DNA from: a virus
IMG/VR virus record: IMGVR_UViG_3300012346_000329
Coordinates: 10,008 to 74,007 of that record
Length of the DNA stretch: 64,000 nt
Reading direction: 5' to 3' (one strand)
Below are positions 1-64,000 of the stretch, piece after piece (position 1 is the first letter of the stretch; each line of letters opens with the position of its first letter). The position numbers and the translations under genes are program-made. The notes under the pieces were generated by a model. It was not told the origin of the DNA, ran no database searches, and saw only the letters and a list, made by a program, of their open reading frames with translations.

Positions 1-1881
1 TTCACTGTATTTGACCTTGAAGCAGATGGCTTATTAGATAGCTTGACTAAACTACATTGTCTTGTAGCACATACTTATGAAAACAATCAATTAATAAAAG
101 AAACTATTATTACAAATCCTTGGGAATTGGCTAATTTTCTTAGTACACAAGAGATTCTAGTAGGTCATAATATTAAAAGATATGATTTTCCTGCTGTTAA
201 AAAAGTGACTGGATATGAACATAAAGGTAGAACAATAGATACTTTAGCTTTATCTTGGTATTTGTATCCAGAAAGAAAAGAGCATGGATTAGAGTCTTGG
301 GGAGTAGAAATAGGAGTAGCTAAACCTTTTATTTCAGATTGGGAAAACCTTAGTACTGAAGACTATGTTAACAGATGTAAAACAGATGTTATTATTAATA
401 CTATTCTCTTTGGAAACTTTATTTCTTATTTTGAAGAATTGTATTCAGAATCTTCTTATGAAGGTATTATAGCATATCTAACTTGGAAGTTAGATTGTGC
501 TGCAGAACAAGAAGCTAATCCTTTAACTATAAATAGAGAACATTGTATAAATACTCTAGGTATTTTAAATACTCTTGTAGAAGAAAGAAAAGCTAATCTT
601 GCCGCAGTTATGCCTAAAATTGAAAAATATGCAGTAAAAAAGAAACCGGCTAAGATGTTTACTGTTAAAGGAGAATTGACTAAAGCAGGAATAGCTTGGT
701 TAGAATTACTTGCAGACAATGATTTAGAAGCAGATTTTGATGGAGAATTAAGCTTACTTAAATCTACAGAAAAACCTAATCCTACCTCAACAGCCCAATT
801 AAAAGCTTGGCTTTTTCAATTAGGTTGGCAACCTACAGTGTTTAATTACACACCTAATAAACAAGGAGAAGTAAGACCTATTCCTCAAATCCAAACTAAA
901 GAACAAAAATTATGTCCCAACATTTTAGTCTTAGCTGAAACTCATCCTGTTCTAAATGAACTTAAAGGTTTGTTTATGCTTCAACATAGAATTGGAATAT
1001 TAAAAGGTTTCTTAGAATGTTCTGATGAATCAGGTAAAATGCAAGCTCAAATAGCAGGATTTACAAATACTTTAAGATTTAAACATAAAAAGCCAGTTAC
1101 TAACTTACCTTCTGTAGAGAAACCTTATGGTAAAGAAATTAGAGGAGCTATTATCTCCCCTAGTGATAACCATTTATTTTGTGGTAGTGATATGAGTTCA
1201 TTGGAAGACACTACTAAACAACACTACATGTATTTTTATGATCCTGATTATGTAACACAAATGAGAGTGCCAGGGTTTGACCCTCATCTTGATATTGCTG
1301 TGTTATCAGGTATGCTTACACCTGAACAGGTTAATGAGCATAAGCTTTATGAAGCCACAAAAGGAGAACAAGGGACATCTTACAAGAAGGTAAGAAGTAA
1401 GGCTAAAGTGGTAAACTTTTCAGGTATTTATGGTGCAGGTCCACCTAAGATTGCTTTAACTACAGGTATGTCTTTAGATGAGGCTACTTTGCTACATAAG
1501 ATTTATTGGCAAAGAAATAAGTCTGTAAAACAAATAGCTAAAGATTGTTTAGTAAAGACTGTTAGAAAGCAAATGTGGTTGTATAATCCTGTAAGTAGCT
1601 TTTGGTATTCTTTGAGGACAGATAAAGATAGATTTAGTACTTTGAATCAAGGTACTGGAGTTTATTGTTTTGATACTCATATTAGAAATGTAAGGAAACA
1701 AGGAATTGTTATTAACCTTCAATATCATGATGAGATTGGGTTCTCTTTACTTAAACAAGACAAAGAAGTAACTTCAGCTAAGTTACACAAAGCCATAGAG
1801 TTAACTAATCAACAATTATGTTTAAATGTTCCTTTAGGAATAAGTATTGACTATGGAGACAACTATGCAGAGTGCCATTAA
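1..1881 (+). CDS. polA: Family A DNA polymerase with 3'-5' exonuclease (5'-partial; frame is open from base 1)
   Basis: The frame upstream of the listed start reads FTVFDLEADGLLDS (ExoI DxE). Also present: ExoII HNIKRYD, motif A GSDMSSLE, motif B RSKAKVVNFSGIYG (Phe at the Pol I 762-equivalent position) and motif C YHDE. Confidence 0.95.
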   Translation, partial: FTVFDLEADGLLDSLTKLHCLVAHTYENNQLIKETIITNPWELANFLSTQEILVGHNIKRYDFPAVKKVTGYEHKGRTIDTLALSWYLYPERKEHGLESWGVEIGVAKPFISDWENLSTEDYVNRCKTDVIINTILFGNFISYFEELYSESSYEGIIAYLTWKLDCAAEQEANPLTINREHCINTLGILNTLVEERKANLAAVMPKIEKYAVKKKPAKMFTVKGELTKAGIAWLELLADNDLEADFDGELSLLKSTEKPNPTSTAQLKAWLFQLGWQPTVFNYTPNKQGEVRPIPQIQTKEQKLCPNILVLAETHPVLNELKGLFMLQHRIGILKGFLECSDESGKMQAQIAGFTNTLRFKHKKPVTNLPSVEKPYGKEIRGAIISPSDNHLFCGSDMSSLEDTTKQHYMYFYDPDYVTQMRVPGFDPHLDIAVLSGMLTPEQVNEHKLYEATKGEQGTSYKKVRSKAKVVNFSGIYGAGPPKIALTTGMSLDEATLLHKIYWQRNKSVKQIAKDCLVKTVRKQMWLYNPVSSFWYSLRTDKDRFSTLNQGTGVYCFDTHIRNVRKQGIVINLQYHDEIGFSLLKQDKEVTSAKLHKAIELTNQQLCLNVPLGISIDYGDNYAECH

Positions 1882-2119
1882 TTACACAAATTTTTTTCAA
1901 TTCTTTTTACATATTCCTGTAGCAGTATTTGAAGATATAAGTGATGAAGAAATAATAGGAGATTGTTATGAAATGGCAGCTTATCCTATTGTTATTATAA
2001 GAAATCCTAAACATCCTTTATTTATTCAAATGATAACAGAATTTAAAAAGAAAGGAATAAAACAAGAACTTAAATGTATAGTCTTAGCAATAGGCTATAA
2101 TAATTCGTATTTATCATGA
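1865..2119 (+). CDS. Hypothetical protein
   Basis: Short ORF overlapping polA and the helicase (ATGA overlap at 2116). ATG at 1865 is preferred over the track start. Confidence 0.55.
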   Translation: MQSAINYTNFFQFFLHIPVAVFEDISDEEIIGDCYEMAAYPIVIIRNPKHPLFIQMITEFKKKGIKQELKCIVLAIGYNNSYLS

Positions 2120-3480
2120 GAAAGTATTTTAGAGAGTTAGAGGAACTCTTTCAAAACCCAAAATCAATTCTAACCTATATTGACAAAATAGAGGCTTTAA
2201 GAGACAAAATTACAGAACCTTTAGCAGTAGAGGTTTTTGTAAATAAAGTCAGAGAGAAGGTCCAGAATGAAGCCATACAAGCTGTTATAAACAACAATGG
2301 TGGAATGGTAGCTATGGCTACAGGTTCAGGTAAGTCTAGAGTAGCTGTTGAAATAGCTAAATTTTACTCTCAAGAAAAGAATATTTTTCCTGCTGTTATA
2401 GTACCTACTGAAAAGTTAAGGGATGAAAACTGGAAAGAAGAATTTGAGAAATGGGAAGCTGATTATATGTGGAGAGATGTAGAAAGTCTTTGTTATGCTT
2501 CAGCTTCTAAAATTAGAGGTAGAGAATTTGATATTGCCATTCTTGATGAAGGTCACAATATCACAGAGTTATCCTCAGAGTTTTTCTTGAATAATTATGT
2601 AGAAAGAACTGTATTACTTACTGCAACTCCTCCTGATGATAAAGTGAAAAGACAAATCTTATCTGACTTAGATATTAAACTTGTTTATGAGCTTACTTTA
2701 GATCAAGCTGTAAGATTAGGCTTTGTGGCACCTTATAAGATTACTGTTATTACAGTGCCTCTTGATGCTACAACTAAGAACATTCCAGGTGGTACTAAAG
2801 CTAAACCTTTTATGACTACAGAAGCAGCATGCTATGCTTATTGGAATAAAAGAGTTCAAGGAGCTATGTTTGACCAAACTCCACAAGGTAAAGCTAAACT
2901 TAAGTTTGCTATCTTGGGTAGAATGCAGTTTATCTACAAGATTCCTTCTAAAACACAAGTAATCAAGTATCTACTTGACAAAGTAATTCCTGCAGATGAT
3001 AGAACTATTATCTTTTGTGGTAACATAGAACAAGCTGAAGAAGTTTGTCCTACTTATTATCACTCTAAGTCTGGTAATCAGTTCTATGATGATTTCAAAG
3101 CAGAAAAGATTAATAGACTATCTTGTGTTAAAGCTGTCAATGAAGGGCATAACTTCCCTGGAGTTGACTCAGGCATTATAGGTCAATTAAATTCTAAAGA
3201 GAAAGACTTGGTTCAAAGAATTGGTAGATTAATTAGGTTTAGACCTGGGCATGAAGCACACCTTTATATAGTAATCTCTGAGTCTACTCAAGATGAAAAA
3301 TGGTTAGAAAATGCTACTGAAAATCTTAATCAATCTAAGATTGAATATGTAAGATTTCCTAATTTTAAACAAAGAATAGACACTTTTAAAGACATGCCAA
3401 AAGCTGATGAAAACTTAGATATGTTTAAAAAAGCTGGAGTAGAAAGTATTCAAATAGGTAAAACTAATTATAAAATCTGA
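2116..3480 (+). CDS. Superfamily 2 (DExH) helicase
   Basis: Walker A MATGSGKS, Walker B LDEGH, motif III TATP, motif VI QRIGRLIR. Confidence 0.9.
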   Translation: MRKYFRELEELFQNPKSILTYIDKIEALRDKITEPLAVEVFVNKVREKVQNEAIQAVINNNGGMVAMATGSGKSRVAVEIAKFYSQEKNIFPAVIVPTEKLRDENWKEEFEKWEADYMWRDVESLCYASASKIRGREFDIAILDEGHNITELSSEFFLNNYVERTVLLTATPPDDKVKRQILSDLDIKLVYELTLDQAVRLGFVAPYKITVITVPLDATTKNIPGGTKAKPFMTTEAACYAYWNKRVQGAMFDQTPQGKAKLKFAILGRMQFIYKIPSKTQVIKYLLDKVIPADDRTIIFCGNIEQAEEVCPTYYHSKSGNQFYDDFKAEKINRLSCVKAVNEGHNFPGVDSGIIGQLNSKEKDLVQRIGRLIRFRPGHEAHLYIVISESTQDEKWLENATENLNQSKIEYVRFPNFKQRIDTFKDMPKADENLDMFKKAGVESIQIGKTNYKI

Positions 3481-3484
3481 TTTC

Positions 3485-3715
3485 ATGAGTCTAATTGCTT
3501 ATTACAGACACTTAGGAAAGGGTAAGTTTAAGCAGATAACAGCAGAAGATGTTAAAAAGCTTAAAGAGATAAATTTAACTAGTGCAGTATTAACTATTGA
3601 TAAGATTATGTTTATCAATAACTTTAATACTGCATTTAGTGTGACAGAATGTAAACAAATATTAGAATTTGTAGAATCCTTAAAACAAAAAGATGACAGT
3701 AAATCCACAAATTAA
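3485..3715 (+). CDS. Hypothetical protein
   Basis: 76-aa ORF in operon orientation that fills the gap. Confidence 0.55.
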   Translation: MSLIAYYRHLGKGKFKQITAEDVKKLKEINLTSAVLTIDKIMFINNFNTAFSVTECKQILEFVESLKQKDDSKSTN

Positions 3716-4244
3716 ATCAGTTCTACAGCAATTTAATATTCCTGTAGAAGATGGCTTAGCTTATCTTTTGTCTATTTATTTTGATTGTAGACCCTCTTAT
3801 ACACCCACACTCTTAGTACAAAGAATGAATGTAACTAATATTCTTGGCATTGATGCTAATAGGCAAGTTATATGGCATATCCCTTTATTTGAAAAGGGAG
3901 ATTCTGAAGACAAATGGCAATGGGTATTTGAGTGGAATGCAAATTTCAAAGCAATAAATAAACTAAGAAAAGCTAGTGACAAAGATGTTCTTATTAGAAT
4001 GAAAGCTTTCTTTGCTGATAACCCTGATGTAAGAAAAGAAGAAGTAATTGGAGCTACTAAACTCTATTTTAATTCTTTGACTAGTGCTGAGTATCTTATT
4101 ACTTCTCACTATTTTATATCTAAAGGAGTAGGCAGAGACAGAACTTCTGCTTTATATGAATGGGTTGAAAAGTATAGAGATGCAATGACTGAAACAAAAT
4201 CAGACAGTGCTTTTCCTACTGATTTAGCCACAACAATGCAATAA
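3693..4244 (+). CDS. Hypothetical replication-associated protein (possible helicase loader/initiator)
   Basis: 183 aa, coupled to dnaB by a TAATG overlap. Function is inferred only from position. Confidence 0.6.
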   Translation: MTVNPQIKSVLQQFNIPVEDGLAYLLSIYFDCRPSYTPTLLVQRMNVTNILGIDANRQVIWHIPLFEKGDSEDKWQWVFEWNANFKAINKLRKASDKDVLIRMKAFFADNPDVRKEEVIGATKLYFNSLTSAEYLITSHYFISKGVGRDRTSALYEWVEKYRDAMTETKSDSAFPTDLATTMQ

Positions 4245-5506
4245 TGAATTTTAGAGCAGCATTTGAAGCAGGTCAAAAAGGTAGTAATAAAGGTCTTCCT
4301 ATGGGGGAGGGCCTTAAAACTATATCTCAAGCAGTGAATGACATACAAAGAGGAAGAATCTTTACAATAGCAGCAAGTCCCAAAGGAGGGAAGTCAACCC
4401 TAGTGGATGTTGGATTTTGTATAGAGCCTGCAATTTATGTATTGAATTTTAATGCTAAATTAAAAGCTTCTATGGAAGCTATTGTTTCTAAGTTAGAGAC
4501 AGAAATTGACTTTACAAAAAGAACAGCTCTTAATGAAGAGTATGAAAAATTGAATGGTCAATTAATAGATTTAGAGTTTATCTACAACTCTTATGAGATT
4601 GACAGAGTAAGTAAAGAGTTTGATTTTGTTGCCCATTTCTTACACAGAGATTTTGGCATTTATCAGATATTTTTACCTGCTGGAAAGCTTTACAAAGGGA
4701 ATAATTTTGTATATTTGTCTTCTGCTTTTCTGAAGGGAGAATTACATTATGATTCTCTAAATCCTAATGATCCAAAAGAAATTATTACAGTCCCTACAGA
4801 CATTACTGATAAAGTAAAAATTGTCTATAAGACTAGAATAGTGCCTTTATTTGGAGAATTTAATGAGAAAGGAGAGAAGCTTTCTAAGGGTCTTATCAGA
4901 TTTCTTGATAACAAAGACAATCCTACAGGAGTAAGAAATTATCTTATAGCTTATGCTAAAGAAAATGGAGAGTTTCTTTATAAAGAAACAACTAAAGATG
5001 GTCAAACTTTTAAAAGGATGATAGGCTATAGACCTAATAATCCTGCTAAATACACCATAGTTATTACAGACCATTTAAGAAAATTGATTCCTGAAAGAGG
5101 TTTTTCAATGAAAGAAACTGTAGATAAGTTTTCAGACTATTGTGTAGAACTTAGAAACACTTGTCAATTTACTTTTGTTCATATTATCCACCTTAATAGA
5201 GCAGTAAGTGATATTGGAAGAAGAAAACTGGATGATGATAATATTTATCCTTCTTCTGATGACATTAAAGACACAGGTAACCTTAGTGAAGATAGTAACT
5301 ATATTTTTACCATGTTTAATCCTAATGATGATAAGTTTAACTTAAACAAGCATTTTGGAAAAGTCATTAGAAGACCAGATAGATCATTATTATATCCTTA
5401 CATGAAAACTGTACATTTAGTAGAGTCTAGACATTGCTTTTGTCCTCAGCATTTTAGAGTCAATATGTATGGTGATGTGAAGAAATTTGAACCCTTAACA
5501 ATCTAA
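4244..5506 (+). CDS. dnaB: DnaB-like replicative helicase (SF4)
   Basis: Walker A AASPKGGKST, Walker B IVITDHL, H3 HIIHLNR, H4 DIKDTGNLSEDSNYIF. Confidence 0.85.
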   Translation: MNFRAAFEAGQKGSNKGLPMGEGLKTISQAVNDIQRGRIFTIAASPKGGKSTLVDVGFCIEPAIYVLNFNAKLKASMEAIVSKLETEIDFTKRTALNEEYEKLNGQLIDLEFIYNSYEIDRVSKEFDFVAHFLHRDFGIYQIFLPAGKLYKGNNFVYLSSAFLKGELHYDSLNPNDPKEIITVPTDITDKVKIVYKTRIVPLFGEFNEKGEKLSKGLIRFLDNKDNPTGVRNYLIAYAKENGEFLYKETTKDGQTFKRMIGYRPNNPAKYTIVITDHLRKLIPERGFSMKETVDKFSDYCVELRNTCQFTFVHIIHLNRAVSDIGRRKLDDDNIYPSSDDIKDTGNLSEDSNYIFTMFNPNDDKFNLNKHFGKVIRRPDRSLLYPYMKTVHLVESRHCFCPQHFRVNMYGDVKKFEPLTI

Positions 5507-5509
5507 AAA

Positions 5510-5863
5510 ATGGCAAAATTAAATAAAATGGAGCTTCAAGCTGTAGCCGGATCTATACTGAAAGAAGTAAAGGCAGTAAAACTTCCTCAACTTATTCAAG
5601 AATGGGAGCAGAAAAAACTTGAAGTAGAGTCCACAGAAGTTTACAAAGACCTTCAAGCTTGGTTAAAGAAACATTCTTTAGAAGAAGAACCAGTAATCAA
5701 TACTTTTCAGTTAAATAGGCTTTTAGGTCTTAATCCAAAACCTACTTCAGTAAATTTACCTTCAGTTCAAAGTATTGTTGATAAATTAATAATAGGTCAG
5801 ATTACAGATTCTAATATTACCTCTTTAGCAGAAAGTATTGCCCAAGAATTATTAAATGCTTAA
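5510..5863 (+). CDS. Hypothetical protein
   Basis: 117-aa ORF with an A-rich leader, in operon orientation. Confidence 0.6.
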   Translation: MAKLNKMELQAVAGSILKEVKAVKLPQLIQEWEQKKLEVESTEVYKDLQAWLKKHSLEEEPVINTFQLNRLLGLNPKPTSVNLPSVQSIVDKLIIGQITDSNITSLAESIAQELLNA

Positions 5864-5877
5864 TTAAAAATTAAATT

Positions 5878-6216
5878 ATGGCTAAAATTTTGGTGTTAGC
5901 ACCGTCAGGTTTCGGTAAGTCCACCAGTATAGGACAGATTCCAGAATTAGGAATTAAAGGATTAACTCCTGAAGAGACTTTTCTTATTTCAGTAACTTCT
6001 AAACCTCTTCCATTTAAAGGGAGTGGTGCAGCATATCCAATATGCCAACCTGGAGATTTAAAATCAGGTAGAAGAATCATTACTGATGATGCAAAAGCTA
6101 TAGCAGAAATCTTCTTAGCTTTAGTTGCAAGTCCTTACAAGAATATTGTATGGGATGACAGTAACTATGTTATGCAGAATTGGTATATGGCTAATGCTTT
6201 AGCTAAAGGTTGGGAT
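5878..6216 (+). CDS. AAA_24/Sak4-like P-loop ATPase, exon 1
   Basis: Walker A APSGFGKST and Walker B IVWDD. Homology ends at KGWD, where the intron begins. Confidence 0.85.
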
Positions 6217-6304
6217 AGAATGGTGTCCTCTTTCTAAGAAATTAGAAAGTAATTAAATTGGGCAAAAACGGTGAAAAGATTATAGATTTTTCATAAAAAA
6301 TGTT

Positions 6305-6312
6305 TATATTTG
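6305..6312 (+). promoter_or_regulatory. Bacteroidota sigma-A -7 element (TAnnTTTG) for the intron endonuclease
   Basis: TATATTTG ends 17 nt upstream of the ATG at 6329. Confidence 0.6.
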
Positions 6313-6328
6313 TACAAAATAAAATTGT

Positions 6329-7030
6329 ATGAAAATAAATAATTATAATAAAGACTTCTTTAAAGAAATTGACACAGAACTCAAGGCTTACATTTTAGGT
6401 TATATTGTAGCAGATGGTTGTATAACTATTGAACACAGACCTTTAAAACCTAATAATCCTATAAAAAGAGTTCAGTTTCAACCTTCTATAGATGATTTAC
6501 AAGTAATTACTTTGATCAGAGATGTTATTGCACCTACAAATAAGTTGACTATTGTCACTAATAAAAGAGAAGGTAACAGAAAAGATACAGTAAAACTTAG
6601 ACTTGCGTGTACTGAAATAGTTAAAGACTTAATGACCCTTTACAATGTAAAACCTAGAAAAACTTATGATACAACTTTTAGATTTCCTAATATTAGAGAA
6701 GATTTAAAAAGACATTTTATAAGAGGTTTTATAGATGGAGATGGTAGTATAGGTACAAGACATTTTTCTATGATTTGCAACTCAAAATTATTTGCAGAAG
6801 ATATTTTAAAAGAATTTTTAAAAGCTATACCTAATTTGAAATACTATATTTATGATGAAAATAGAAGTCAAACTACTTATTATTCTTTACACTTTAGTGT
6901 AAATAAAAAATCAAGAGTTGATTTATTTAATTTTATCTACAAAAACTGTAATTTCAGGTTAAATAGAAAGTATGAAAAAGCTCTCAATGCCGTGTTAAAC
7001 AGTAACAGTAAAGAGTTATTGTCAATGTAA
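6329..7030 (+). CDS. Double-motif LAGLIDADG homing endonuclease (intron-encoded)
   Basis: Motifs AYILGYIVADGCI and HFIRGFIDGDGSI. The ORF 3' end runs into the intron core. Confidence 0.92.
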   Translation: MKINNYNKDFFKEIDTELKAYILGYIVADGCITIEHRPLKPNNPIKRVQFQPSIDDLQVITLIRDVIAPTNKLTIVTNKREGNRKDTVKLRLACTEIVKDLMTLYNVKPRKTYDTTFRFPNIREDLKRHFIRGFIDGDGSIGTRHFSMICNSKLFAEDILKEFLKAIPNLKYYIYDENRSQTTYYSLHFSVNKKSRVDLFNFIYKNCNFRLNRKYEKALNAVLNSNSKELLSM

Positions 7031-7189
7031 CGCATAGGAACTGAAACTCTTAATAAGAGAATATAATGTTCCCAAGAGTGTCCAATACCTGACCAAATAA
7101 AGTTGAAGGTAAAAATGTATGCTGACCTTACAGGAGATATAAGTACTGTAAGAACTAGAGGATAAAAAGCCTTTAGGATAACAAGGGTG

Positions 7190-7561
7190 GCCCCTAAGCA
7201 AATTGGTTTTATGATGGGTAGAATCTTTGATGCTATTGAGAAGTTAGATGCTGCAGGTAAAAATGTAATCATCTTAGCTCATGGTGACAGTGTTCCTGGA
7301 CCTGATGGTAGAATCTATATGAAGTACAAATCTACAGGTAAGATGGTAGATGAGTATTTGACTGTAGAGGGTAAAGTAGACGTAACTCTTATTGGTATTA
7401 GTAGATATGATGCTACTGATAAAAAAGCAGTAAAAGAGTTCTTAACCAATGAAAATGAGCAATATTCTTCAGCTAAATCTCCTATTGGAATGTTTGATAA
7501 ACAATTCATTCCTAATGATTTAGGACATGTAGTAGAGAAAATTGCTGAGTATTATGGCTAG
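7190..7561 (+). CDS. AAA_24/Sak4-like ATPase, exon 2
   Basis: IILAH and KSTGKMVDEYLTVEGKVD resemble the C-terminal half of AAA_24. The spliced product is 236 aa. Confidence 0.85.
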   Translation, partial: APKQIGFMMGRIFDAIEKLDAAGKNVIILAHGDSVPGPDGRIYMKYKSTGKMVDEYLTVEGKVDVTLIGISRYDATDKKAVKEFLTNENEQYSSAKSPIGMFDKQFIPNDLGHVVEKIAEYYG

Positions 7562-7748
7562 TTTTCCTTGGATTGCAACCCTATTAATAGGCTTTGTTGT
7601 TGGAGCTGTAATAGGAGTAGGTTTAGTAGCTTTAGTTTTTGATAAAAAACCTACTGAAAATCTTTGTCCAAGATGTGAAAATAAAACTGAAGAAGAAAGA
7701 CAGTTGAAACAAGATTGGGCAGAACAACAAAAAGGATATATAAATTAA
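7554..7748 (+). CDS. Small membrane protein with CxxC
   Basis: Hydrophobic N-terminus followed by CPRC. Confidence 0.55.
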   Translation: MASFPWIATLLIGFVVGAVIGVGLVALVFDKKPTENLCPRCENKTEEERQLKQDWAEQQKGYIN

Positions 7749-7766
7749 TTTAAAACAGATATTATT

Positions 7767-8156
7767 ATGTCACAAAATGCAGAGCAACAAGCTCCATTGA
7801 GAATCACTGTTAGTGAAGTAAAAGGTCTTTTAGACTTAGGTAAAAGCAGAAAAGAAATTGCTGACCATTATGGTAAAAGTATGGCAGAAATGCAAAGAAC
7901 TGTTTGGAGTCATCCAAAATTGAAAAATCTTAAAGCTAAGAAACAATACACAGGTATTGAGCTTGAAGATGATACAGAAGATGCTCCTGTAGCTGAAGTG
8001 AGTGACCAAATTACTGATGCAGTAACTCAAGAAGTTGCTCATGTTCCTGGACCAGAGGCTAACCATGCTTTTGAGAACCAAGAAGAAATGGGAACTCAAG
8101 CTGTAGAAGAAAATGCTCCTGTAGCTACTGAGACAGTAGAAGAAACTTGGAGATAA
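7767..8156 (+). CDS. Hypothetical protein with HTH-like N-terminus and acidic tail
   Basis: LLDLGKSRKEIADHYG resembles a helix-turn-helix. The C-terminal half is rich in E/D/A/P. Confidence 0.6.
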   Translation: MSQNAEQQAPLRITVSEVKGLLDLGKSRKEIADHYGKSMAEMQRTVWSHPKLKNLKAKKQYTGIELEDDTEDAPVAEVSDQITDAVTQEVAHVPGPEANHAFENQEEMGTQAVEENAPVATETVEETWR

Positions 8157-8186
8157 GAATTGTTTAATTAATAAAAATAGGCTAAT

Positions 8187-8960
8187 ATGTCACAATTACA
8201 AGGATACGGATTTGTATCAGATTCAGATGAATCATTGAAAACTAAAACAGGTGCTAAATTTGGTGGTAACTTTGGTGTTGCTTTCTTAACTAAATTTGCT
8301 TACAGTGCAAATGTAGCTAAAGCAGGCCAAGAAGCTAGAGAAGCTATTGAGGTAGAAGTAACTGTAGGAGAAAGAGGTTACAAAGAATGGATTAACCCTG
8401 TAGATCAAGTAAAGGATAAGAATAATGTAGTAATTACAGACAAAAACTCTCCTGAGTACATTGCTGGGTTTAATGCTCTTATTGTTCAACAAAATGCTAC
8501 AGTAACTCATTACTTAAAAGCAGTAGGTGTAACTGAAGAGGCTATGAGAGCAGCATTTACAACAGCTCCAGTAAGTTTTGCAGATTATGCACAAAGAATT
8601 TGTTCACTTTTACCTATTGGTTATGATAAAAAACCACTAGATTTGTTCCTTGAATATCAATGGAATTTTGGTAAGAAACAAGATGGGTCTTTAAATGATA
8701 AGACTTATCCAACTTTACCAAAAAACATGAAAGGTGGTTACTTTATTGTTCCTGCTCAACCTGGAGTTTGGGTAGAAGCTAAAAGTGAAGATGGAAGATT
8801 AAGTTACAACAATTCTAATGGACAAAAACATCCATTTGAAAGAGATGCTAACTTTATGTCTTCTCACAAAGGTACTCAACAAGTAATGGGAGCTTCAGTA
8901 GCTGCAGCTTCTCCAATGGGAGCTATGACAGCAGCAGCTCCTGGTAATGGTTGGTCATAA
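8187..8960 (+). CDS. Putative single-stranded DNA-binding/recombination accessory protein
   Basis: Lies between the AAA ATPase and the primase. Beta-rich aromatic core, with a flexible tail ending in an aromatic residue. The function is an inference. Confidence 0.45.
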   Translation: MSQLQGYGFVSDSDESLKTKTGAKFGGNFGVAFLTKFAYSANVAKAGQEAREAIEVEVTVGERGYKEWINPVDQVKDKNNVVITDKNSPEYIAGFNALIVQQNATVTHYLKAVGVTEEAMRAAFTTAPVSFADYAQRICSLLPIGYDKKPLDLFLEYQWNFGKKQDGSLNDKTYPTLPKNMKGGYFIVPAQPGVWVEAKSEDGRLSYNNSNGQKHPFERDANFMSSHKGTQQVMGASVAAASPMGAMTAAAPGNGWS

Positions 8961-8992
8961 TTTAACATAACTTAAAAAATCCTCTTCTAAAT

Positions 8993-10021
8993 ATGAGCTT
9001 ATTTCAATACAATTCAGATAAACTTGATAGAAGAGGATATATAAGTAAGGAAAGCATTTTGTCTTTAGTTACTCAAGAAGATGTATTTGAGTTAGTGTTC
9101 AAATTTAAACCTGAAGAATTTGAGTATGTAGTATCTCCTTTAAGAAATGATGATGTACCAGGATGTTGGTTTTCTTATCATGATAATGGTACTCTCTATT
9201 TTGTAGACTTTGGTAATTCTAGGACTCATAGTGATTGTTTTAATATAGTCCAGGACTATTACAAATTTCCAAACTTCTATTTGACTTTAGAATTTATTCA
9301 TAACTCTTTAATTAGAGGTAAGACTGAATTAAAGGAAATAGAACCTAAAAAAATAATCCAAAAAGTATCCAAAGAAGGAGTCAAACTCTTAATAGAAGCA
9401 AGACCATTTAATGAGCAAGATGGCTATTTTTGGTCTAAGTATGGTATTAGTAAAGCCAATCTAAAAGAAGACAGAGTTTTTCCTATTCATAGATTATATG
9501 CTTTGAATACTAAAACAGGAAGTCATGCTATTGAATGCAAAGATTTAGCATACAGTTACACTGATTTTCCTGAAGCTAGAAAGAAAATCTATTTTCCTTT
9601 AAGACAAGGAAAGAATAGGTTCATTACTAATTGTAATAAAGATGATGTAGGTGGCATCAACTCTCTGTCTCAATATAGTAAGCAACTTATTATTTCTAAA
9701 AGCTACAAGGATTATAGAGTACTTAAAAATAATGGAAAAAATGTAGTTTGGTTTCAAAATGAAGGTATGATACCCAATAATGAAATTATAAACAAATTGG
9801 TTAAACTTTATTCAGAAATTATTGTATGGTTTGACAATGATCAGCCTGGAATTATAGCTTCAGAAAAAGTCAAACAACATATAAATTCCATTATCCCAAG
9901 TAGAGCTAAAAATCTATGGCTACCTGAGAGAGGGTTAGAAATAGGAGTTAAAGACCCTTCAGATTGTATAGCTAAAGACCCTATTTATTTTCAACAATTC
10001 TTAAAAGACTTTACAAAATGA
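8993..10021 (+). CDS. dnaG: DNA primase (TOPRIM, crAss-like type)
   Basis: N-terminal SPLRNDDVPG (degenerate zinc-binding-domain signature), TOPRIM IISKSYKD, WFDND and KDPSD. Confidence 0.85.
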   Translation: MSLFQYNSDKLDRRGYISKESILSLVTQEDVFELVFKFKPEEFEYVVSPLRNDDVPGCWFSYHDNGTLYFVDFGNSRTHSDCFNIVQDYYKFPNFYLTLEFIHNSLIRGKTELKEIEPKKIIQKVSKEGVKLLIEARPFNEQDGYFWSKYGISKANLKEDRVFPIHRLYALNTKTGSHAIECKDLAYSYTDFPEARKKIYFPLRQGKNRFITNCNKDDVGGINSLSQYSKQLIISKSYKDYRVLKNNGKNVVWFQNEGMIPNNEIINKLVKLYSEIIVWFDNDQPGIIASEKVKQHINSIIPSRAKNLWLPERGLEIGVKDPSDCIAKDPIYFQQFLKDFTK

Positions 10022-10557
10022 ATTTCAATCATATTCATCATTCTTGGAAACCCCTTCTAAGAGAATTTAATACAGATGCTTTTCTTTACTTTAAGAATGA
10101 AGTCCTTCCAAAAGAAAAATATTACCCTGAAGCTGATAAAGTTTTCAGGGTTTTTTCTATGCCTGTGTCAGCTATTAAAATAGTAGTTATTGGCTCATGG
10201 AAACACCCTAATATTAGAGAAATAGAAAAGCAAGGCTTGTTCTGGCTACCTATTTCTTTAACACAAGGTGTAGATGTGGACCACACAGAATATTGGGAGC
10301 CCTTCATTAAAAAGGTAGTGTATTTTATATCCAAGAGTAACCCTACTATTTGGATAATGCCTACAACAGAAGCACAAAGATTTACAGCTAATCTACCTGT
10401 CAAATCTATATTTAATGTGCTAAGATATGATGATAGCCTTATTAATCAGATTCCCATCAATGTAGATTACAACTATGTGTTTAAAGGTATTTATGTAAAT
10501 ACTGAACACATAAACATCCTCCTAAAGAGATTAGGTAGGGAAACAATTAATTGGTAA
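10018..10557 (+). CDS. Uracil-DNA-glycosylase-like protein, apparently catalytically degenerate
   Basis: The N-terminus HHSWKPLL...YYPEADKVFRVF...IKIVVIG aligns with UNG, but GQDPY is replaced by GSWKH. Confidence 0.7.
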   Translation: MNFNHIHHSWKPLLREFNTDAFLYFKNEVLPKEKYYPEADKVFRVFSMPVSAIKIVVIGSWKHPNIREIEKQGLFWLPISLTQGVDVDHTEYWEPFIKKVVYFISKSNPTIWIMPTTEAQRFTANLPVKSIFNVLRYDDSLINQIPINVDYNYVFKGIYVNTEHINILLKRLGRETINW

Positions 10558-10575
10558 TTTAATCTAGAAAAAATC

Positions 10576-11352
10576 ATGAGTGAAGTACAAGCTCCGGTTA
10601 CTACTGAAAGAGAAGTAACAATTTATGCCACTAGAGGTGGTAACATGAAAAAAATCATGACATCTGTTAAAACTTGGGGAGAATTACAACCTTTAGTTAG
10701 AAGAGAAGGTTTTGATTTAGGTTCATTATTAGCTGCTGAGAACATCAACAAGACAGACCTTGTTAATGATTTAGCAATATTACCTGAAGGAAACTTCAGA
10801 TTATTCTTAAGACCAAAACAAACTAAGTCTGGTGCAACTCCTGACAGAAAAGAATGTTTTGCTATTATCAAAGCTCACTTAGCTGTTTACCCTAATGATA
10901 AACAAAAGTTTATCATTGATGGTAAAAACATGACTCAGTTATCTACTCCTGTAGTACAGGATTTAGTGGCTAAGTATTGTAAAGCTAGTAAAAGTACTTC
11001 TACACCTGTAGCTACAGCTATAGAAACTCCAGTTAAAGAAAAAGCTCCAAAAGCTGAAGTTGTAAAAAAAGTAGAAGATGTTGTAGAATCTGTAAAAGAA
11101 TCTAAAACTGAAAGCAATGTAGAAGTAGGTACAAAAGTTAAAGATTTAACTGATGCAGAAAGAGTAGAAGGAGCTTTATCTTTATTATCTTCTTTAGGTC
11201 AGTATGAGTCTTATGCTAAAGTAGAAAAGCGTTTGAATAGACTTTCTGATGAAATAGCTATTGCAAATGCTCCTGCTCCAGAAATGAGAGAAGAAACTGA
11301 AGAAGAGGCTTTAGCTAGAGAAGCTAGAGAACTGTCTGCAGGTTACAGATAA
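10576..11352 (+). CDS. Ubiquitin-like (beta-grasp) protein with C-terminal extension
   Basis: Residues ~12-86 follow a beta-beta-alpha-beta-beta pattern (REVTIYA / MKKIMT / TWGELQPLVRREG / ... / FRLFLRP) ending in KQTKSG86. The gene directly precedes E2, JAB and E1 genes. Confidence 0.65.
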   Translation: MSEVQAPVTTEREVTIYATRGGNMKKIMTSVKTWGELQPLVRREGFDLGSLLAAENINKTDLVNDLAILPEGNFRLFLRPKQTKSGATPDRKECFAIIKAHLAVYPNDKQKFIIDGKNMTQLSTPVVQDLVAKYCKASKSTSTPVATAIETPVKEKAPKAEVVKKVEDVVESVKESKTESNVEVGTKVKDLTDAERVEGALSLLSSLGQYESYAKVEKRLNRLSDEIAIANAPAPEMREETEEEALAREARELSAGYR

Positions 11353-11359
11353 TATTAAT

Positions 11360-11395
11360 AAAGGGCTTATGTAATGTAAGCCCTTTTAATTTTTT
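11360..11395 (+). terminator. Intrinsic terminator between the Ubl and E2-like genes
   Basis: Perfect 10-bp stem AAAGGGCTTA/TAAGCCCTTT followed by a T-rich run. Confidence 0.8.
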
Positions 11396-54200: not shown

Positions 54201-57085
54201 ACAAGAACTGCCCCAATAATTATTTTCCAAATAGATTTTTTACCTTTTCTTTTTTTCATTCTAATGTCATAGTAGATACTATTAGTGTATCTCATAGGAG
54301 CTATATAAGAATCTCCATTAAATACAACACAAGAACTAATTGCATCTTCTTCAAAGTAAGTAGGTAATTGACTTGCCTTATAATAAGGCTCTAATCTAAA
54401 GTTAGAATATGGTTCTGCATTCTCTTTGTATAAATAAACATAAGGTGCTGATTGAGTAGCTCTAAAATCATAATCTTGTTTTAAAGTTAAGATACCTGTT
54501 TTATTATCACAAGCTAAATTAAAAATGTCTGCTCCTTTATCTTCACTGTCTTTTGTAAGTTTATTTTCTAAAGCATTCAAATAAAAAACATCTTTAATCA
54601 TATTGTTAGTATAAGTAAAGGTTTTTTCTGGTACAAAAGTTGTTTGATTATCTCTAGTCTTAATTTGAATAGAAAATCCATCAGGGTCTCTTTGTCCTTT
54701 CTTATGCTTTCCTTCTACATAACCTGAACCATCTGCTACATCATTGACTTTAGTTCTACTAATAATAGCTTCTGTTTTATTAAAAGAACCTTGCTGAATA
54801 ATACTAGTAAAGCTAGTGTACTCTGCATTATTAAATTTATGCTCCGGAGAGATAAGTCCTAAAACATCTTTCTTAATTTTTTTATTTTCTTCTGTCAAAG
54901 AAATATACTGTGGAAACAAAAGACCTTGAGCTACAAAATTCTTCTCTGTACTTGTAGGAGTTAAGATAGCACTATCTAAGACAGTTTTATCTGATTCCTT
55001 TCTTTCATTTCTAACTATATAATAACCTGTAATTTTTTGACCTAAAGTATCTTCTAAAGAAGGCATCTGAATATTAGAAAAGTTTATTCCAAATATTTCT
55101 GCAGTATAGACTTTATCTTCTGTTGCAGTAATCCCTACAGCAATAGTAATTTTATAGGTCATTCCTGTAACAGTAGAAGTACCTGAAAAATAATATAAAT
55201 GAGTGATAGGATCTAAAGTAGGACCTGTTAAAGTTACAGTGTTCTCATTAGGAACTGAAGAAAATTCAAACTCTTCCTTAATAGTCAAAGGTGTAATTAC
55301 ATTACCATATAACAAAGAAGTGTTATAAACAAAATTTACATCTTGAGTCAAGTCATCTCCTACAGTACCAGCCCAATCATAAGGGTCTACTACATCTGCA
55401 AAATAACTTGTTTCTCCATCTTGAGAATAATCTAAAGTAAAACTATAAGCTCCTCTATCCCCATCTTCATCTACAGGAGCACCAAAGTTAGCATAGCTAG
55501 GAGTACATTCCGTATCTTCTACTTCACACTCTCCAGGAATAGTTGCAGAAGCTTTTGTCACTTCTATTTGTAAACTTTTTACAAAACCTAATTCTTCAGG
55601 TTCAGTTACTTCTTCTACAAAAGGGATACCTACATCTGTTCTTAAAGGGAATCTGTGATGTCTAACAGGGCTTTGACTTAAGTCATTTCCTTCTGAATCT
55701 TTTCCCCAATATACATTTTCTCCACAAGTATTGTTATCTATGTAAGCTGTTTCTAAACAAGCATTATTAAGATTACTCATAGGATAAATATTATCCCCTT
55801 CTGAATAGGTTTTCATAGGAGCCACTGTAGGTCCTTTGCCTGGAATGTGATACACAGGAGACACTGTATTATCTTCAAAGATATATACAATACCAAAAGA
55901 ATATATTTCTCCTGGCATGTACCCTATACCATTAAAATGGGCAGCAGGATCTTTAGCAGAACCTAAGCTTAACTCAGATACTATAATCTGTTTAGTTATT
56001 AAGTCTGCTCCAATCTTACTAGCATATTTTTGTAAGTTACAAAAGTTAACTTGCTTACCTTCTGTGTCTCCTAATATTAATCTGTTTTCAATCTGTTCTA
56101 TACTTTGAGCTTTCTCAATAATATTATTGAACATTGTAACCTCTTCTTGAGTTCCTGAAGTTTCATAGTTATCTCCTGTATAATAGAAAACAGGATTTCT
56201 AGTAGAAATTTCTGAAGTATACTTTGTGTCAGAGATTAACCCATTACCAGAGTTAGCTTCTGTAATAGCTATTTGATAAAAAGGAAAAGTTGTGTCTAAA
56301 CTATCTGGATCAATAACTATCTTAATTGCTTTACCTGTTTTACCATAGTTTAAATAGTCATTAACTTGTGTAGTAGAACCTCTTAGTTCTCTGTAGTTTC
56401 TATTTAAAGCAGAGTTGTAAATTTGAATAGTCTCTGTGCTATCTATAAATTCTGTAGGATTAAAGTCTTCATCTAAGTATCTAATAGAAAAATTATAACT
56501 ACCTGGAAGTAAATTACCTTGAGCTTCTACTACTGTGATATTTGTTATCTGAGGTATCTTTTTATATTTCTTAAATAAATTAAACTTAGAAATATCCCAA
56601 GTACCAGACTCAGTCAAAAATTCTTCTGGTTTATTAAAATTGTATAGTCTAGGTTTAGGGTCTACCCAATACACAATTTTATCACAACCTCTTCTTAATC
56701 TAAAAGTAGCATCAATTTGTTGTGTTGTCTTGAATCCTAATTTCTCAGTTTGATTTGCATCAGACACTTTAATAGTAAGAGTATTGTTTCTATCTACTAC
56801 TGCAATACAAGAATTTCCATTAGGATTAGCTAAGAATAGACAAGTTTCTTCATCTCCAATATAAACCTTACCCATAGGAATGTATCCTGTAGGAAGAGTG
56901 TAACATGCTTCATTAGATTCTTCATTAGCAATAAAATTAGCATCTCCTTCTTTAGTCTCATTAACTCCTGTCATTACAAATCTAGTAGTTCCTTGAGGTT
57001 GAGTTACTAATGAAGAATCAGTATGCAATCCTCCTGGAGAGTATACTGAATTTTGTTCTTGTCTTGGTTCTTTTTCTTGAGACAT
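51209..57085 (-). CDS. Tail stabilisation/muzzle protein (1958 aa)
   Basis: N-terminal GGLHTDSS...QPQGTTRF and a beta-rich body, with a C-terminal WTMSYSL...WVGWHPYLP. Located between the ring and cargo genes. Confidence 0.7.
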   Translation of the reverse strand: MSQEKEPRQEQNSVYSPGGLHTDSSLVTQPQGTTRFVMTGVNETKEGDANFIANEESNEACYTLPTGYIPMGKVYIGDEETCLFLANPNGNSCIAVVDRNNTLTIKVSDANQTEKLGFKTTQQIDATFRLRRGCDKIVYWVDPKPRLYNFNKPEEFLTESGTWDISKFNLFKKYKKIPQITNITVVEAQGNLLPGSYNFSIRYLDEDFNPTEFIDSTETIQIYNSALNRNYRELRGSTTQVNDYLNYGKTGKAIKIVIDPDSLDTTFPFYQIAITEANSGNGLISDTKYTSEISTRNPVFYYTGDNYETSGTQEEVTMFNNIIEKAQSIEQIENRLILGDTEGKQVNFCNLQKYASKIGADLITKQIIVSELSLGSAKDPAAHFNGIGYMPGEIYSFGIVYIFEDNTVSPVYHIPGKGPTVAPMKTYSEGDNIYPMSNLNNACLETAYIDNNTCGENVYWGKDSEGNDLSQSPVRHHRFPLRTDVGIPFVEEVTEPEELGFVKSLQIEVTKASATIPGECEVEDTECTPSYANFGAPVDEDGDRGAYSFTLDYSQDGETSYFADVVDPYDWAGTVGDDLTQDVNFVYNTSLLYGNVITPLTIKEEFEFSSVPNENTVTLTGPTLDPITHLYYFSGTSTVTGMTYKITIAVGITATEDKVYTAEIFGINFSNIQMPSLEDTLGQKITGYYIVRNERKESDKTVLDSAILTPTSTEKNFVAQGLLFPQYISLTEENKKIKKDVLGLISPEHKFNNAEYTSFTSIIQQGSFNKTEAIISRTKVNDVADGSGYVEGKHKKGQRDPDGFSIQIKTRDNQTTFVPEKTFTYTNNMIKDVFYLNALENKLTKDSEDKGADIFNLACDNKTGILTLKQDYDFRATQSAPYVYLYKENAEPYSNFRLEPYYKASQLPTYFEEDAISSCVVFNGDSYIAPMRYTNSIYYDIRMKKRKGKKSIWKIIIGAVLVVAAVALTIFTLGATSPLVVAAGLAAAGALAGVGTAITLSGIKQEAWNNAYNILYDQGLRETVKDDYVFRDLDPVSGHPRGFEKNPEDDEIQWLGDSINLWFESAVNVGLRHGASDNTPDFLNAPGPIEAGCTLVEWNYEYFGINSVGSSEIAPTNALDFHMYNKLTFLDAKRKANRGYYGLAAAEMYLLNPDYKRRNKQKAYFHLGLEYDCCSDCNETFPHRFHWSEQAFQEEVTDNFRMFLPNNYKDLEAETGRITDIFRIQNNLYIHTTEGLWHCPQTFQERVTQDIVSFIGTGEYFSVPPRKIVDDNNSSAGNKHKWGRLKTKFGVLFPSWKEKKWYIFDGQQLQPISDNGNSSWFKNNMEFEVEKDWYQKLGSEYPYKNNPSNSLGVGFISTYDTNKERLIITKKDIKITNLPTSNFLLCNEGPSPVIFTNVSNTIANQEALGWTYLGVENCKLKFNRVVPIIETIPVNQDLLIPSDMDIHIFYDTSGSYVTTMLGQGDLYQEDIDLWYYGENDPHPLKIIDAEVDAWVNDNLTAFGWEGNVVKYYDATGEWLDFPKRIPAEERGKVLLISFVNNSVGTYHDRPLNFLSQPTGFYTSNYNSFVDNVYATYDQFIGISYPIATLDASKSFILHNLAAVKGMNYTYTEVNNIPTNAYFSSSEWSTLKTYLQGLNPYEDLLDASNEPGLSQYSWLVIPNRTMDVASEELISASYIGEDLTNIVRRNITFQDETEIIGYTTEVTYIQGTPFVPTILNNSWTMSYSLKRQEWVGWHPYLPSFYMHVQEKFYSWKQGGTSIFKHNRPNHYQTFYGIYYPFIVEYVDNPNLIATKVWDSILFQSEAKRFDNAVKDYVDIDNVTFNKVLLYNTYQISGLLELVPKQNESANYLFQQTRNLTLSAGQIPIDRNERDWTLNDMRNLRVDNIVPMFIKDLSLIQSNYYIDKIVNPAALSYSKDWAQLESFRDKFLVVRLIFDTFADTRILFNFSASDKKISER

Positions 57086-57087: not shown

Positions 57088-58104
57088 TTATAACATAAAG
57101 GATGAATTACCTGATGTGTATCTATATTTGTTTGTAAAATTAGGATCATTAAATATCCTGTTTTCAGCTCTACCTAATTTACCAAAGAAACCATAATATC
57201 TTTTTTGGTTAGGAATCAAGTAATTAGATTGTTCCATAAGATTCTGATATTCATCAGTACCCCAAGGCATCTTAGCTTTGTTCTTAAATTGTTTGACATA
57301 TTTTAACCACCTTGCTTCAGCTACTTGAGCTAATTGCATAGCACCTTCTCTGTGGTTCCAAGCTTCTCTTTCTTTTACCTTCCAACCTAAGTAGTAAGTA
57401 ATAGCTGCTTTAGCTGATTCATCATCAGGGACCATAGGGTAACCTGTTTCAGGATCTACTTTACTTCTTAAATAAGCTAGAGCTACAAACCCATCTTTAA
57501 AACTAAATCTAAGTTGGTCTTGTACTACAGTGTATTCTTCATGCACTACAGTATTTGTACTATATAAACCTTCAGTATCTGGAGTTTGACAAACTAGAGA
57601 ATTAAAGAAAGTATGATTAGCTAACCTTACCGGGGTAAATTTAGATTGATGTAATTTAGAATGAACCCAACCTAAGTACTCATATTGTAAATCAAAGTAA
57701 GGTCTATAGTAAGCCAATTCCTGATCTGCTATAGGGTCTCCATGACAATCTACAGCCACCAAACTAGAATCATAACCTCCACAAGTATCACACTCTGTAG
57801 TACTAGGAGTAACCAACTCTTCTAGTAAAACTTCTGGAGTACAGTTAGCTTCTTCTGAAGCAGTCCAAGCATTATTTTTAGCCACTTGAATTATGTGTTG
57901 TAATCCATTAGGTAAAGCTGCTTGATAGTTTTTCACTTCTAAAAAAGCAATAGCTTCTTCAGAATTAGAAGTCATCTTCATGTGCCCTAAAGCTTCTCCT
58001 ATCCATTCAATAGCCTCATCTTCATTAAGCTCATTGCCTCTGAAGTCTCTTAGATACTTAGATAGGATTGTATCTACTGTTACATATTGAAATCTTTGAC
58101 TCAT
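57088..58104 (-). CDS. Tail ring/tubular protein
   Basis: IEWIGEAL, LEVKNYQAALP, FSFKDGFVALAY and GYPMVPDD match crAss-like ring proteins as I recall them. Confidence 0.65.
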   Translation of the reverse strand: MSQRFQYVTVDTILSKYLRDFRGNELNEDEAIEWIGEALGHMKMTSNSEEAIAFLEVKNYQAALPNGLQHIIQVAKNNAWTASEEANCTPEVLLEELVTPSTTECDTCGGYDSSLVAVDCHGDPIADQELAYYRPYFDLQYEYLGWVHSKLHQSKFTPVRLANHTFFNSLVCQTPDTEGLYSTNTVVHEEYTVVQDQLRFSFKDGFVALAYLRSKVDPETGYPMVPDDESAKAAITYYLGWKVKEREAWNHREGAMQLAQVAEARWLKYVKQFKNKAKMPWGTDEYQNLMEQSNYLIPNQKRYYGFFGKLGRAENRIFNDPNFTNKYRYTSGNSSFML

Positions 58105-60694: not shown

Positions 60695-61399
60695 TTAATT
60701 TTTTAAAGTTTGTTTTAATATGTCAGTAACATCCTCAGTATTAAATAACTGATAGTTGCCATCTAAACCTAACCATATAATAACTCTTTTACTTACTTTA
60801 ACTCCTACTTGTTCAAGTAGTAATTGATAGTAAGATAGTTGAATTACATAATGATTTAAAGGATGGTCTAAGAAAGTTTCAAAAGGGGCCAACATAGTCT
60901 TACCTTGATAATTCTTAAACAAGTCTTTATTAGTCTTGTAATCAGCAATTATATATGATTGAGTTTTAGTATCAAAAAGAATGATATCTGCTGTACCTGC
61001 AAATAAGTGTTGAAAGTGGTACATTCTAAGCTCTGCAGCTACTGGTAAAATATGTTCTGGAACATCTTGCCAGAACTTTACAATAGCTTCTTCTTGAGGA
61101 CAAGAAGGTCTTAAGTTTCTATTGAACTGATAGATTTCTCCAAAGTTGTGTACTCTGTGTCCTCTATCTCTAGACTCTTGGTTAATCTGAGCCCATTGAG
61201 CTAGCATTTCTTCTGTACTTATCCCTGCTTTCTTAGCAGAGAAAGGGGCAACTTGCTGAGCATCAAAGTGCTCATAAAAATTAGAAATCAGTCCTGAAAC
61301 TGAAGTCTTTAAAGGTTCCCCTTTTACATAGTACTTATGTTTAGCCTCTTCAAACTCAAGACTATTAAAAGGTTCTTTTATTTTACTTAGTAATTCCAT
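60695..61399 (-). CDS. PD-(D/E)XK nuclease
   Basis: FAGTADII, IADYKTNK and YVIQLSYY. Confidence 0.82.
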   Translation of the reverse strand: MELLSKIKEPFNSLEFEEAKHKYYVKGEPLKTSVSGLISNFYEHFDAQQVAPFSAKKAGISTEEMLAQWAQINQESRDRGHRVHNFGEIYQFNRNLRPSCPQEEAIVKFWQDVPEHILPVAAELRMYHFQHLFAGTADIILFDTKTQSYIIADYKTNKDLFKNYQGKTMLAPFETFLDHPLNHYVIQLSYYQLLLEQVGVKVSKRVIIWLGLDGNYQLFNTEDVTDILKQTLKN

Positions 61400-61452: not shown

Positions 61453-62037
61453 TTATTTTTTAGTCTCAGAAATCATCTTCTTTACTCCTCTTACCACAGC
61501 ATTAAATTTCTTAACTACATCAAATCCCATATCTTTAAAGTTTTCAAATATAATAGACCATAACTCTATAATACAACAGAACCCAATACAGATTAAAGTA
61601 ATAGTCAATTCTTTATCACTTATACTAGAAATTGAAACTGTCTTTAAAAAGAAAACACTTTCCATTATCCAACATCCTAAGATAGAGATAATGTAAGTGG
61701 AAAGCTTTACTAAAGAAAGTTTTAGTTTTTCTGAAGAGATTAAATCTTTGTCTTTTAAACTTGGATCAAGTTTTTCAGCTTCTCTTTTTCTAAAATAAGA
61801 AGCTATAATTCCGGTTATAAAATCTACAACTAAAAAAAAGAATAAAGCTGCTAAAGCTTTTTGAACTGGGGATAACACAATTAAAGTCATTAACCCTGCA
61901 CTTGTAGTTACTCCTGCAGTACTGTGGGACATTGTTTTTAAAGATACTCCCATCTTAAGAAAGTATTTACTGTAGAGTGCAATTAATGACATGATGCATT
62001 TTTTTAAAGTTAGAATAAAAAATGAAATAGTTTTCAT
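61453..62037 (-). CDS. Phage holin (holin_4-like)
   Basis: VVDFITGIIAS...SSEKLKLSLVKL...IIELWSIIFENF, with several transmembrane helices. The start is uncertain (62037, 61992 or 61953). Confidence 0.75.
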   Translation of the reverse strand: MKTISFFILTLKKCIMSLIALYSKYFLKMGVSLKTMSHSTAGVTTSAGLMTLIVLSPVQKALAALFFFLVVDFITGIIASYFRKREAEKLDPSLKDKDLISSEKLKLSLVKLSTYIISILGCWIMESVFFLKTVSISSISDKELTITLICIGFCCIIELWSIIFENFKDMGFDVVKKFNAVVRGVKKMISETKK

Positions 62038-63337: not shown

Positions 63338-63999
63338 TATGCTACAATATTTAAAGTTTGAGATAACCACCCTAAAGCACCTTTTACAAACATTTTAGCT
63401 CCTCCTGGTTGATTAGGTGCAAATACTTGTTCTCCTACTCCTAAGTCTGGGAATAATGTATATAAATCAGAAGAAGTAAGAGTAGCAGTAGAAGCTGTAT
63501 AATAAAAGCTTTTTAAATAAGTACTAGATTCCCGAAGATTAACTTCACTATTAATACTAAAATAAGTATTTGGTAAAGCTTCCATATTCCAAAAAGCTTT
63601 TCCCCCTGCTGCAATATTTCCTAAGAAAGTAAATCTATAATTTACATTAGGATAAAGAAAATAACTACTGTCTCCATTATTAATTCCGTGAGTAGTAATA
63701 TATCCTGTAGAGGTAGGAGCTGAACTTGTTGTAGTAACTTCTGAGTTAGCTGTTACATATCCACCTGCACCAACCCCATTTGCAAAAATTGTAACCTCTT
63801 GTCCTATTTTAGTAGTATCAGGAAGAATCACAAAATCACCTTTGTCACTTGAAAAATTAACTATGTTATAATCTGCTGATAATACCTCTCCATTACTGTC
63901 ACAAATTACTTCAGCTACTGTTTTAGATACAGAACTTTCTACTCCATTTAATACCCAAGAAATAGAGTATTCTTCATCTGTAAGTAATTGTGTACTTTG
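63337..63999 (-). CDS. Structural protein, 5'-partial (frame is open to the window end)
   Basis: The frame continues upstream of the track start to base 63999 (QSTQLLTDEEYS...). Beta-rich and T/S/G-rich. Confidence 0.65.
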   Translation of the reverse strand, partial: QSTQLLTDEEYSISWVLNGVESSVSKTVAEVICDSNGEVLSADYNIVNFSSDKGDFVILPDTTKIGQEVTIFANGVGAGGYVTANSEVTTTSSAPTSTGYITTHGINNGDSSYFLYPNVNYRFTFLGNIAAGGKAFWNMEALPNTYFSINSEVNLRESSTYLKSFYYTASTATLTSSDLYTLFPDLGVGEQVFAPNQPGGAKMFVKGALGWLSQTLNIVA

Positions 64000-64000
64000 T

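Follow-up and report, generated by a model that had tools for sequence, protein, structure and literature searches.

Vertebrate viruses that suppress CpG under ZAP and TLR9, and the vertebrate and mycoplasma genomes (M.MpeI, M.SssI) in which CpG decays, lose CG across the whole dinucleotide and independently of the reading frame; the CG ratio of vertebrate DNA is roughly 0.2. Phage T4 uses its endonucleases II and IV to degrade cytosine-containing host DNA while its own DNA is protected. Phages also avoid restriction sites, with selection removing a DNA word through synonymous changes, as in FpV4 against FpsJI (PMC11837570). The viral DNA analyzed here, a 64,000-nt stretch (positions 10,008 to 74,007 of IMG/VR record IMGVR_UViG_3300012346_000329; hereafter the window), has been purged of nearly all CG dinucleotides. 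Unlike restriction-site avoidance, this purge targets a 2-bp word whatever its flanking bases, is graded, is not confined to a 4–8 bp motif and is missing from unrelated phages of the same hosts. Unlike the vertebrate and mycoplasma cases, which are likewise dinucleotide-wide and frame-independent, it goes with undepleted bacterial hosts, no CpG methyltransferase found in the phage genomes scanned and no TG/CA excess, and it is about tenfold deeper than the vertebrate CG ratio. The pattern is real and general beyond the window, and while resembling both restriction avoidance and animal-virus CpG suppression, it fails the defining tests of both.

CG is nearly absent from the window and the whole genome

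In the window, 38 CG dinucleotides were observed against 1,544 expected from base composition, an observed/expected ratio (rho) of 0.02, while the ratios of GC, CC and GG were normal (1.06–1.08). The 93-kb whole genome contained 90 CG, 18 of them within CCGG (rho 0.04). The initial annotation, made by eye, had estimated 35–45 CG where more than 1,000 were expected, none in the first 600 nt and a handful across the giant-gene region, with GC, CC and GG common and arginine almost always AGA, and computation bore out this description: the first CG was located at position 603, only 4 CG were found in the giant-gene region 25789–46957, and AGA accounted for 898 of the 994 arginine codons genome-wide. 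Depletion was graded by region: the putative early region had rho of 0.14, the replication and structural modules 0.04 and 0.03, respectively, and the giant genes 0.011.

The depletion was present in all three codon positions, and only 25 CG spanned codon junctions compared with 637±19 in a codon-shuffled null. Codon-usage bias was thus excluded as the cause, in line with the earlier view that the force is far stronger than such bias. All ten NCGN classes, including the non-palindromic ones, were depleted 4- to >100-fold. The TG/CA ratio was 0.96 in the window and 0.98 in the genome, showing no excess.

The genome belongs to a crAss-related phage

The terminase and capsid proteins were 68% and 81% identical, respectively, to those of the Flavobacterium phage FpV4/Fpv3, with which the genome is syntenic in modules. 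It also carries crAss ring proteins; its giant-gene block is syntenic with the FpV4 virion proteins, and its largest gene is related to the putative RNA polymerase of crAss001. The genome shares core proteins and gene order with FpV4 and Crassvirales, as expected of a Fipvunavirus-like member, and strains 95–99% identical to the phage were found in aquatic and lake metagenomes. The genome is that of a 93-kb freshwater crAss-related phage close to Fipvunavirus, and its host is probably a Flavobacterium. tRNA and Rfam scans of the phage were both empty, and no RNA data set was listed for it.

The purge follows phage ancestry

The comparison with related phages and candidate hosts proposed in the initial annotation separated the two clearly. 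Thirteen relatives had rho of 0.03–0.23 (0.065 in FpV4), and across whole genomes of the clade the range was 0.006–0.39, the lowest relatives reaching 0.006 and 0.011. In contrast, Flavobacterium genome samples were not depleted (0.88–1.33), so that the CG ratio of the phage was near neither that of these genomes nor that of codon-shuffled controls. The purge is common to Fipvunavirus (FpV4/Fpv3) and to Steigviridae (crAss001, DAC15), and purged Steigviridae of Bacteroides included crAss001 (0.028), DAC15 (0.022), cr106_1 (0.033) and cr85_1 (0.11). It was absent in phi14:2 (0.46) and cr108_1 (0.51), and sampled regions of Intestiviridae and Suoliviridae were not purged (0.53–0.70). Non-coding DNA was depleted as well, at 0.03–0.27 in strongly purged genomes, a few-fold above the whole-genome level. 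The most extreme cases were two relatives with 9 CG in 89 kb (G420, L583–L587) and 19 CG in 100 kb (G417, L568–L572; rho 0.011).

Unrelated Flavobacterium phages had rho of 0.92–1.89 (Fpv5 1.54, FPSV-F8 1.89, 6H 0.96 and FCL-2 0.92), and Fpv5 is recorded on the same strain as the purged FpV4. The purge spans phages of hosts from two classes and is a trait of the phage lineage, following phage ancestry and not host genome composition. Overall, 90–99% of CG has been removed in the studied phage and in a broad branch of crAss-like relatives, cultured gut phages included. A literature search of incomplete coverage, in which most matches were judged by title and abstract, returned no published report of this pattern, and a phage-wide CpG survey was found without mention of crAss, Steigviridae or Flavobacterium phages (10.1101/2025.05.15.652987).

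Close strains point to purifying selection

We pooled synonymous sites over near-identical strain pairs at <1% local divergence, a divergence that recombination makes patchy. Mere hypermutability of CG would leave new CGs arising as often as usual, and CG sites should then vary between close strains. CG-creating silent differences were instead found at 4 of 8,450 opportunities compared with 218 of 29,670 for other silent transitions, about 15-fold rarer. The hypermutable-CG model predicts 61 such differences (P=2e-21) and the selection model about 10, so the rapid CG turnover between close genomes expected of methylation-deamination decay was not seen. The studied genome alone gave 0 of 953 where 12 were predicted. 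We consider it very probable that purifying selection holds the depletion. The implied scaled cost S is about 2.5–5.4 per CG site, a modest value that fits graded rather than absolute CG loss.

CCGG is a separate and labile layer

Among the 38 CGs of the window, 11 were within CCGG (Table 1) compared with an expected share of 2.7% (P=3.6e-9), and 15 of the 27 others lay in CCG/CGG half-sites compared with 28% expected (P=2.7e-3), confirming both the 11 sites located by eye and the estimate that roughly half of the remainder were CCG/CGG. From these figures a force removing CG except in CCG(G) had been proposed. The enrichment stands for the studied genome, but the force does not spare CCGG consistently: the word is entirely missing from close relatives, and elsewhere CCWGG or CCAG avoidance imposes it. 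Three CCGG states (zero, forced and tolerated) switch repeatedly on the capsid tree, and CCGG is a separate, labile layer.

The zero state was found in FpV4, FPSV-S30, FPSV-D18, FPSV-D24, G002, G003, G005, G007 and G008, unlike the studied genome with its 18 CCGG. Most Flavobacterium psychrophilum strains carry an HpaII-like system, and FpsJI is HpaII-like (PMC11837570). FpV4 and the three FPSV phages thus lack the target of a system that most strains of their host species carry, and HpaII-type restriction, which bans CCGG in FpV4, probably does so in sister genomes as well. In the forced state, crAss001, cr85_1 and G010 avoid CCWGG and G001 avoids CCAG; with these words banned, CCSGG is left for Pro-Gly, which drives CCGG upward. 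Pro-Gly was indeed written CCSGG in crAss001, cr85_1 and G001, with 15 of the 18 CCGG sites of crAss001 being of this kind and 187 CCGG in G001 compared with 77 expected. Restriction-site avoidance accounts for both the zero and the forced state.

The tolerated state was found in the studied genome and G004. CCGG occupied 4.4% and 3.1% of synonymous opportunities in the studied genome, near the neutral baselines of 7–9%, compared with 0.1–1.4% in other contexts. Forcing by avoidance of another word was ruled out here, since CCWGG is abundant (79 sites) and Pro-Gly is written 34/0/0/33, never with CCC or CCG. Descent from an ancestor common with G004 was not supported, as site sharing was at chance (1/12 vs 6/94), and a reading of CCGG as two lenient CCG half-sites fitted the raw counts but was contradicted by the codon-aware table. 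DAC15 spares GCGC instead (11/71, P=1e-5, at dispersed sites), and CCGG and GCGC are both classical targets of inner-cytosine (C5) methyltransferases. In 251 sampled Flavobacterium genomes, homologs of HpaII-type methyltransferases (>=70% identity) were found in 22, of which 4 had no match to an HpaII endonuclease, and HpaII endonuclease genes were found in 21, often beside Vsr-like genes. Given the C5 specificity of both spared words and the methyltransferases without an endonuclease match, the tolerated CCGG would most simply be explained by a host HpaII-type methyltransferase masking that CG.

HpaII-type restriction-modification loci of Flavobacterium with adjacent Vsr-like open reading frames, recognized by an N-terminal motif, were L333, L335, L336, L340, L341 and L344. 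In Fpv5 (L321), which infects a species most of whose members have an HpaII-like system, CCGG was 4.35-fold enriched and CCTG depleted. Near-complete avoidance of the asymmetric 4-mer CCAG/CTGG (observed/expected 0.03–0.2) was observed in G001 (L086–L090), L459 and L562 and may reflect a host system directed at this 4-mer or Vsr-type conversion. Vsr-type CTGG-to-CCGG conversion in G001 was inseparable from CCAG avoidance, and L562 loses CCAG without gaining CCGG. Elsewhere in the studied genome, CAGCTG and CATATG were absent (0 vs 37 expected each) and GATC was about threefold depleted, losses that are ordinary restriction-site avoidance.

Candidate selecting agents

Whether as users or as targets, crAss-like phages of Bacteroidota, the model gut phage crAss001 among them, may meet an undescribed enzyme that recognizes bare, unmethylated CG and is blocked by cytosine methylation, a proposition we rate as nearly an even call. 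Somewhat more tentatively, we favor an agent of this kind encoded by the phages themselves as the source of selection against CG; a phage origin is preferred since the purge leaves unrelated phages of the same hosts untouched and extends across hosts from two classes. While these phages infect, the activity would read bare CG in DNA; it would most likely be a nuclease, nickase, glycosylase or deaminase with CG-rich host DNA as its target, and the phage would be protected from it by having no CG. CCGG would then form a second layer set by host restriction-modification, in which it is banned, forced or masked by methylation. The same logic, a phage activity telling host from phage DNA, operates in T4, where self-protection is base modification; in the purged phages it would be the absence of the word. 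Prokaryotic enzymes include CpG-specific and modification-sensitive DNA deaminases (10.1101/2023.06.29.547047), which offer, by analogy, a chemical precedent for such an agent.

Several observations weigh against this proposal. No gene family explained the purge by its presence or absence in 26 genomes, a test that a core gene of shifting specificity would escape, and a search for the agent among the phage genes did not identify the enzyme. Depletion over these genomes was a continuum from 0.006 to 0.55 and not on/off, and positions 1–20000 of the window had no CRISPR-spacer match in 401 Flavobacterium genomes. The strain-pair test, moreover, assumes that residual CGs are not conserved for function, and its outcome would be the same under selection as under a repair or replication bias against CG gain.

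A host anti-phage system found widely in Bacteroidota, set off only by crAss-like infection and then attacking DNA or RNA that contains CG, with other phages either failing to trigger it or being immune, would suit a continuum without a matching phage gene, since the pressure could vary by host, and it would fit methylation sparing equally well. We nevertheless regard it as unlikely: CG is normal or abundant in unrelated phages of the same host species or strain, the host chromosome would itself have to be protected, and depletion is weakest in the putative early region (0.14 vs 0.011), also the most variable one, unlike what entry restriction would leave.

The phage's own replication could also shape the pattern at little cost, through mutational or repair bias that suppresses CG gain or quickly erases new CGs. 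The pattern is lineage-intrinsic, crAss-like phages here carry their own polymerase, primase, ligase and uracil-DNA glycosylase (UDG)-like gene, and a gain suppressed about 15-fold or a loss raised several hundred-fold would give the same strain-pair result. On the other hand, the studied genome has no TG/CA excess, purged genomes differ in whether the UDG catalytic motif is intact or lost, and we know of no repair pathway with such polarity, so that this bias seems quite improbable.

Cumulative avoidance of many CG-containing restriction sites over a wide host range is more doubtful still. F. psychrophilum averages about 10 methyltransferases, with predicted CCGG, CCNGG, GCSGC and CGCG systems (PMC11837570), and the purged phages clearly avoid restriction sites. 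Such avoidance gives motif-shaped zeros in these genomes and not dinucleotide-wide loss, however, and the depletion extends to non-palindromic NCGN classes. FPSV-F8, from the same host species, avoids CCGG and GATC (0 and 2 sites) yet has a CG ratio of 1.89; because phages of the same host avoid these words but retain CG, selection against CG-containing restriction targets, one of the two forces first suggested, is unlikely.

The other suggested force was methylation-driven loss sparing CCGG. CpG methylation followed by deamination is what classically depletes CpG in vertebrates and in mycoplasmas that have CpG methyltransferases. Here it is barely tenable and was rejected in its ordinary form, leaving the selection branch favored, because CG-creating silent differences are too rare, TG/CA is not in excess and no phage methyltransferase was found: PF00145 and PF01555 (C5 and N4/N6 methyltransferases) had no match in the studied genome and four relatives, PF00145 gave nothing above cut-off in 20 further relatives (24 in all), and Pfam, PHROGs and NCBIfam scans recognized no base-modification cassette. 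The sampled Flavobacterium genomes are, in addition, undepleted. Escape from animal CpG sensing of the TLR9 type is just as remote, for although the purged phages include human-gut and fish-pathogen phages and CCG/CGG are described as neutralizing, less stimulatory contexts, the studied genome and its close strains come from aquatic and lake metagenomes, other gut crAss families are unpurged in the regions sampled (0.53–0.70) and CCGG is zero in many purged genomes.

Other features of the window

Table 1. Features of the window (coordinates in nt; strand given where assigned)
Feature	Position	Strand	Remarks
CG-purged phage DNA	1–64000		38 CG, rho 0.02; purge spans whole 93-kb genome
Putative intron (insertion, 973 nt)	6217–7189	+	LAGLIDADG-type endonuclease open reading frame at 6329–7030; no Rfam match
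Ubl-like/E2-like/JAB-like/ThiF four-gene module	10576–14384	+	Correlates with purge; marker, neither necessary nor sufficient
Giant-gene block	25789–57085	-	Most strongly purged: 8 CG in 31.3 kb, rho 0.011
Retained CCGG	646–649		
Retained CCGG	5547–5550		
Retained CCGG	10594–10597		
Retained CCGG	17135–17138		
Retained CCGG	19392–19395		
Retained CCGG	23681–23684		
Retained CCGG	34588–34591		
Retained CCGG	48104–48107		
Retained CCGG	54844–54847		
Retained CCGG	57630–57633		
Retained CCGG	61811–61814		

The putative intron, probably recently acquired DNA, interrupts a 236-aa gene that is intact in relatives. It holds 4 of the 38 CGs of the window (6269, 6606, 6991 and 7031), the four that had been assigned to an intron at the outset.

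Between the primase and UDG genes of about 100 crAss-like loci, the Ubl module and an alternative four-gene module, which we take by motif to be amidoligase/glutamine amidotransferase-like, were mutually exclusive, the alternative filling the slot in the unpurged Steigviridae phi14:2 and cr108_1. Median rho was 0.08 in 64 loci with the Ubl module and 0.54 in 40 with the alternative, although these loci are not independent. Counter-examples in both directions make the module a marker only and reject it as the cause: G417 has rho of 0.011 without a ThiF match, and L482, L465 and L522 carry the module at rho of 1.30, 0.45 and 0.39. L482, with a G+C content of 43%, was the only CG-rich member sampled. 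The second, E2-like protein of the module had weak UEV/RWD fold matches only, and an Atlas search for it gave no match.

The UDG homolog at 10018–10557 is shortened to 179 aa and lacks the GQDPY catalytic motif, as in its subclade and G007, while the motif is intact in FpV4 and crAss001. Core nuclease genes lie at 15451–15963, 15954–17123 and 60695–61399. A spore-photoproduct-lyase-like radical SAM gene was found at 21134–22045 and is patchy among relatives.

Implications

The sampled host genus keeps a word that the phages have purged 25- to 170-fold, which implies a strong selective agent, and the question is directly testable in three cultured pairs, those of crAss001, DAC15 and FpV4. For practical purposes, inserts used in engineering these phages should be CG-free, composition-based host prediction would be misled by the purge, and a CG-specific, methylation-sensitive enzyme, if it exists, would be useful as an epigenomics reagent. 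crAss-like phages rank with the most abundant viruses of the gut, and little is understood of how they take over Bacteroidota or coexist with them. The agent would be a new host-takeover enzyme or else bacterial immunity of a new kind, based on dinucleotide content; if the proposed enzyme is real, it would discriminate self from non-self by dinucleotide content, a prokaryotic counterpart of CpG sensing of the ZAP/TLR9 type.

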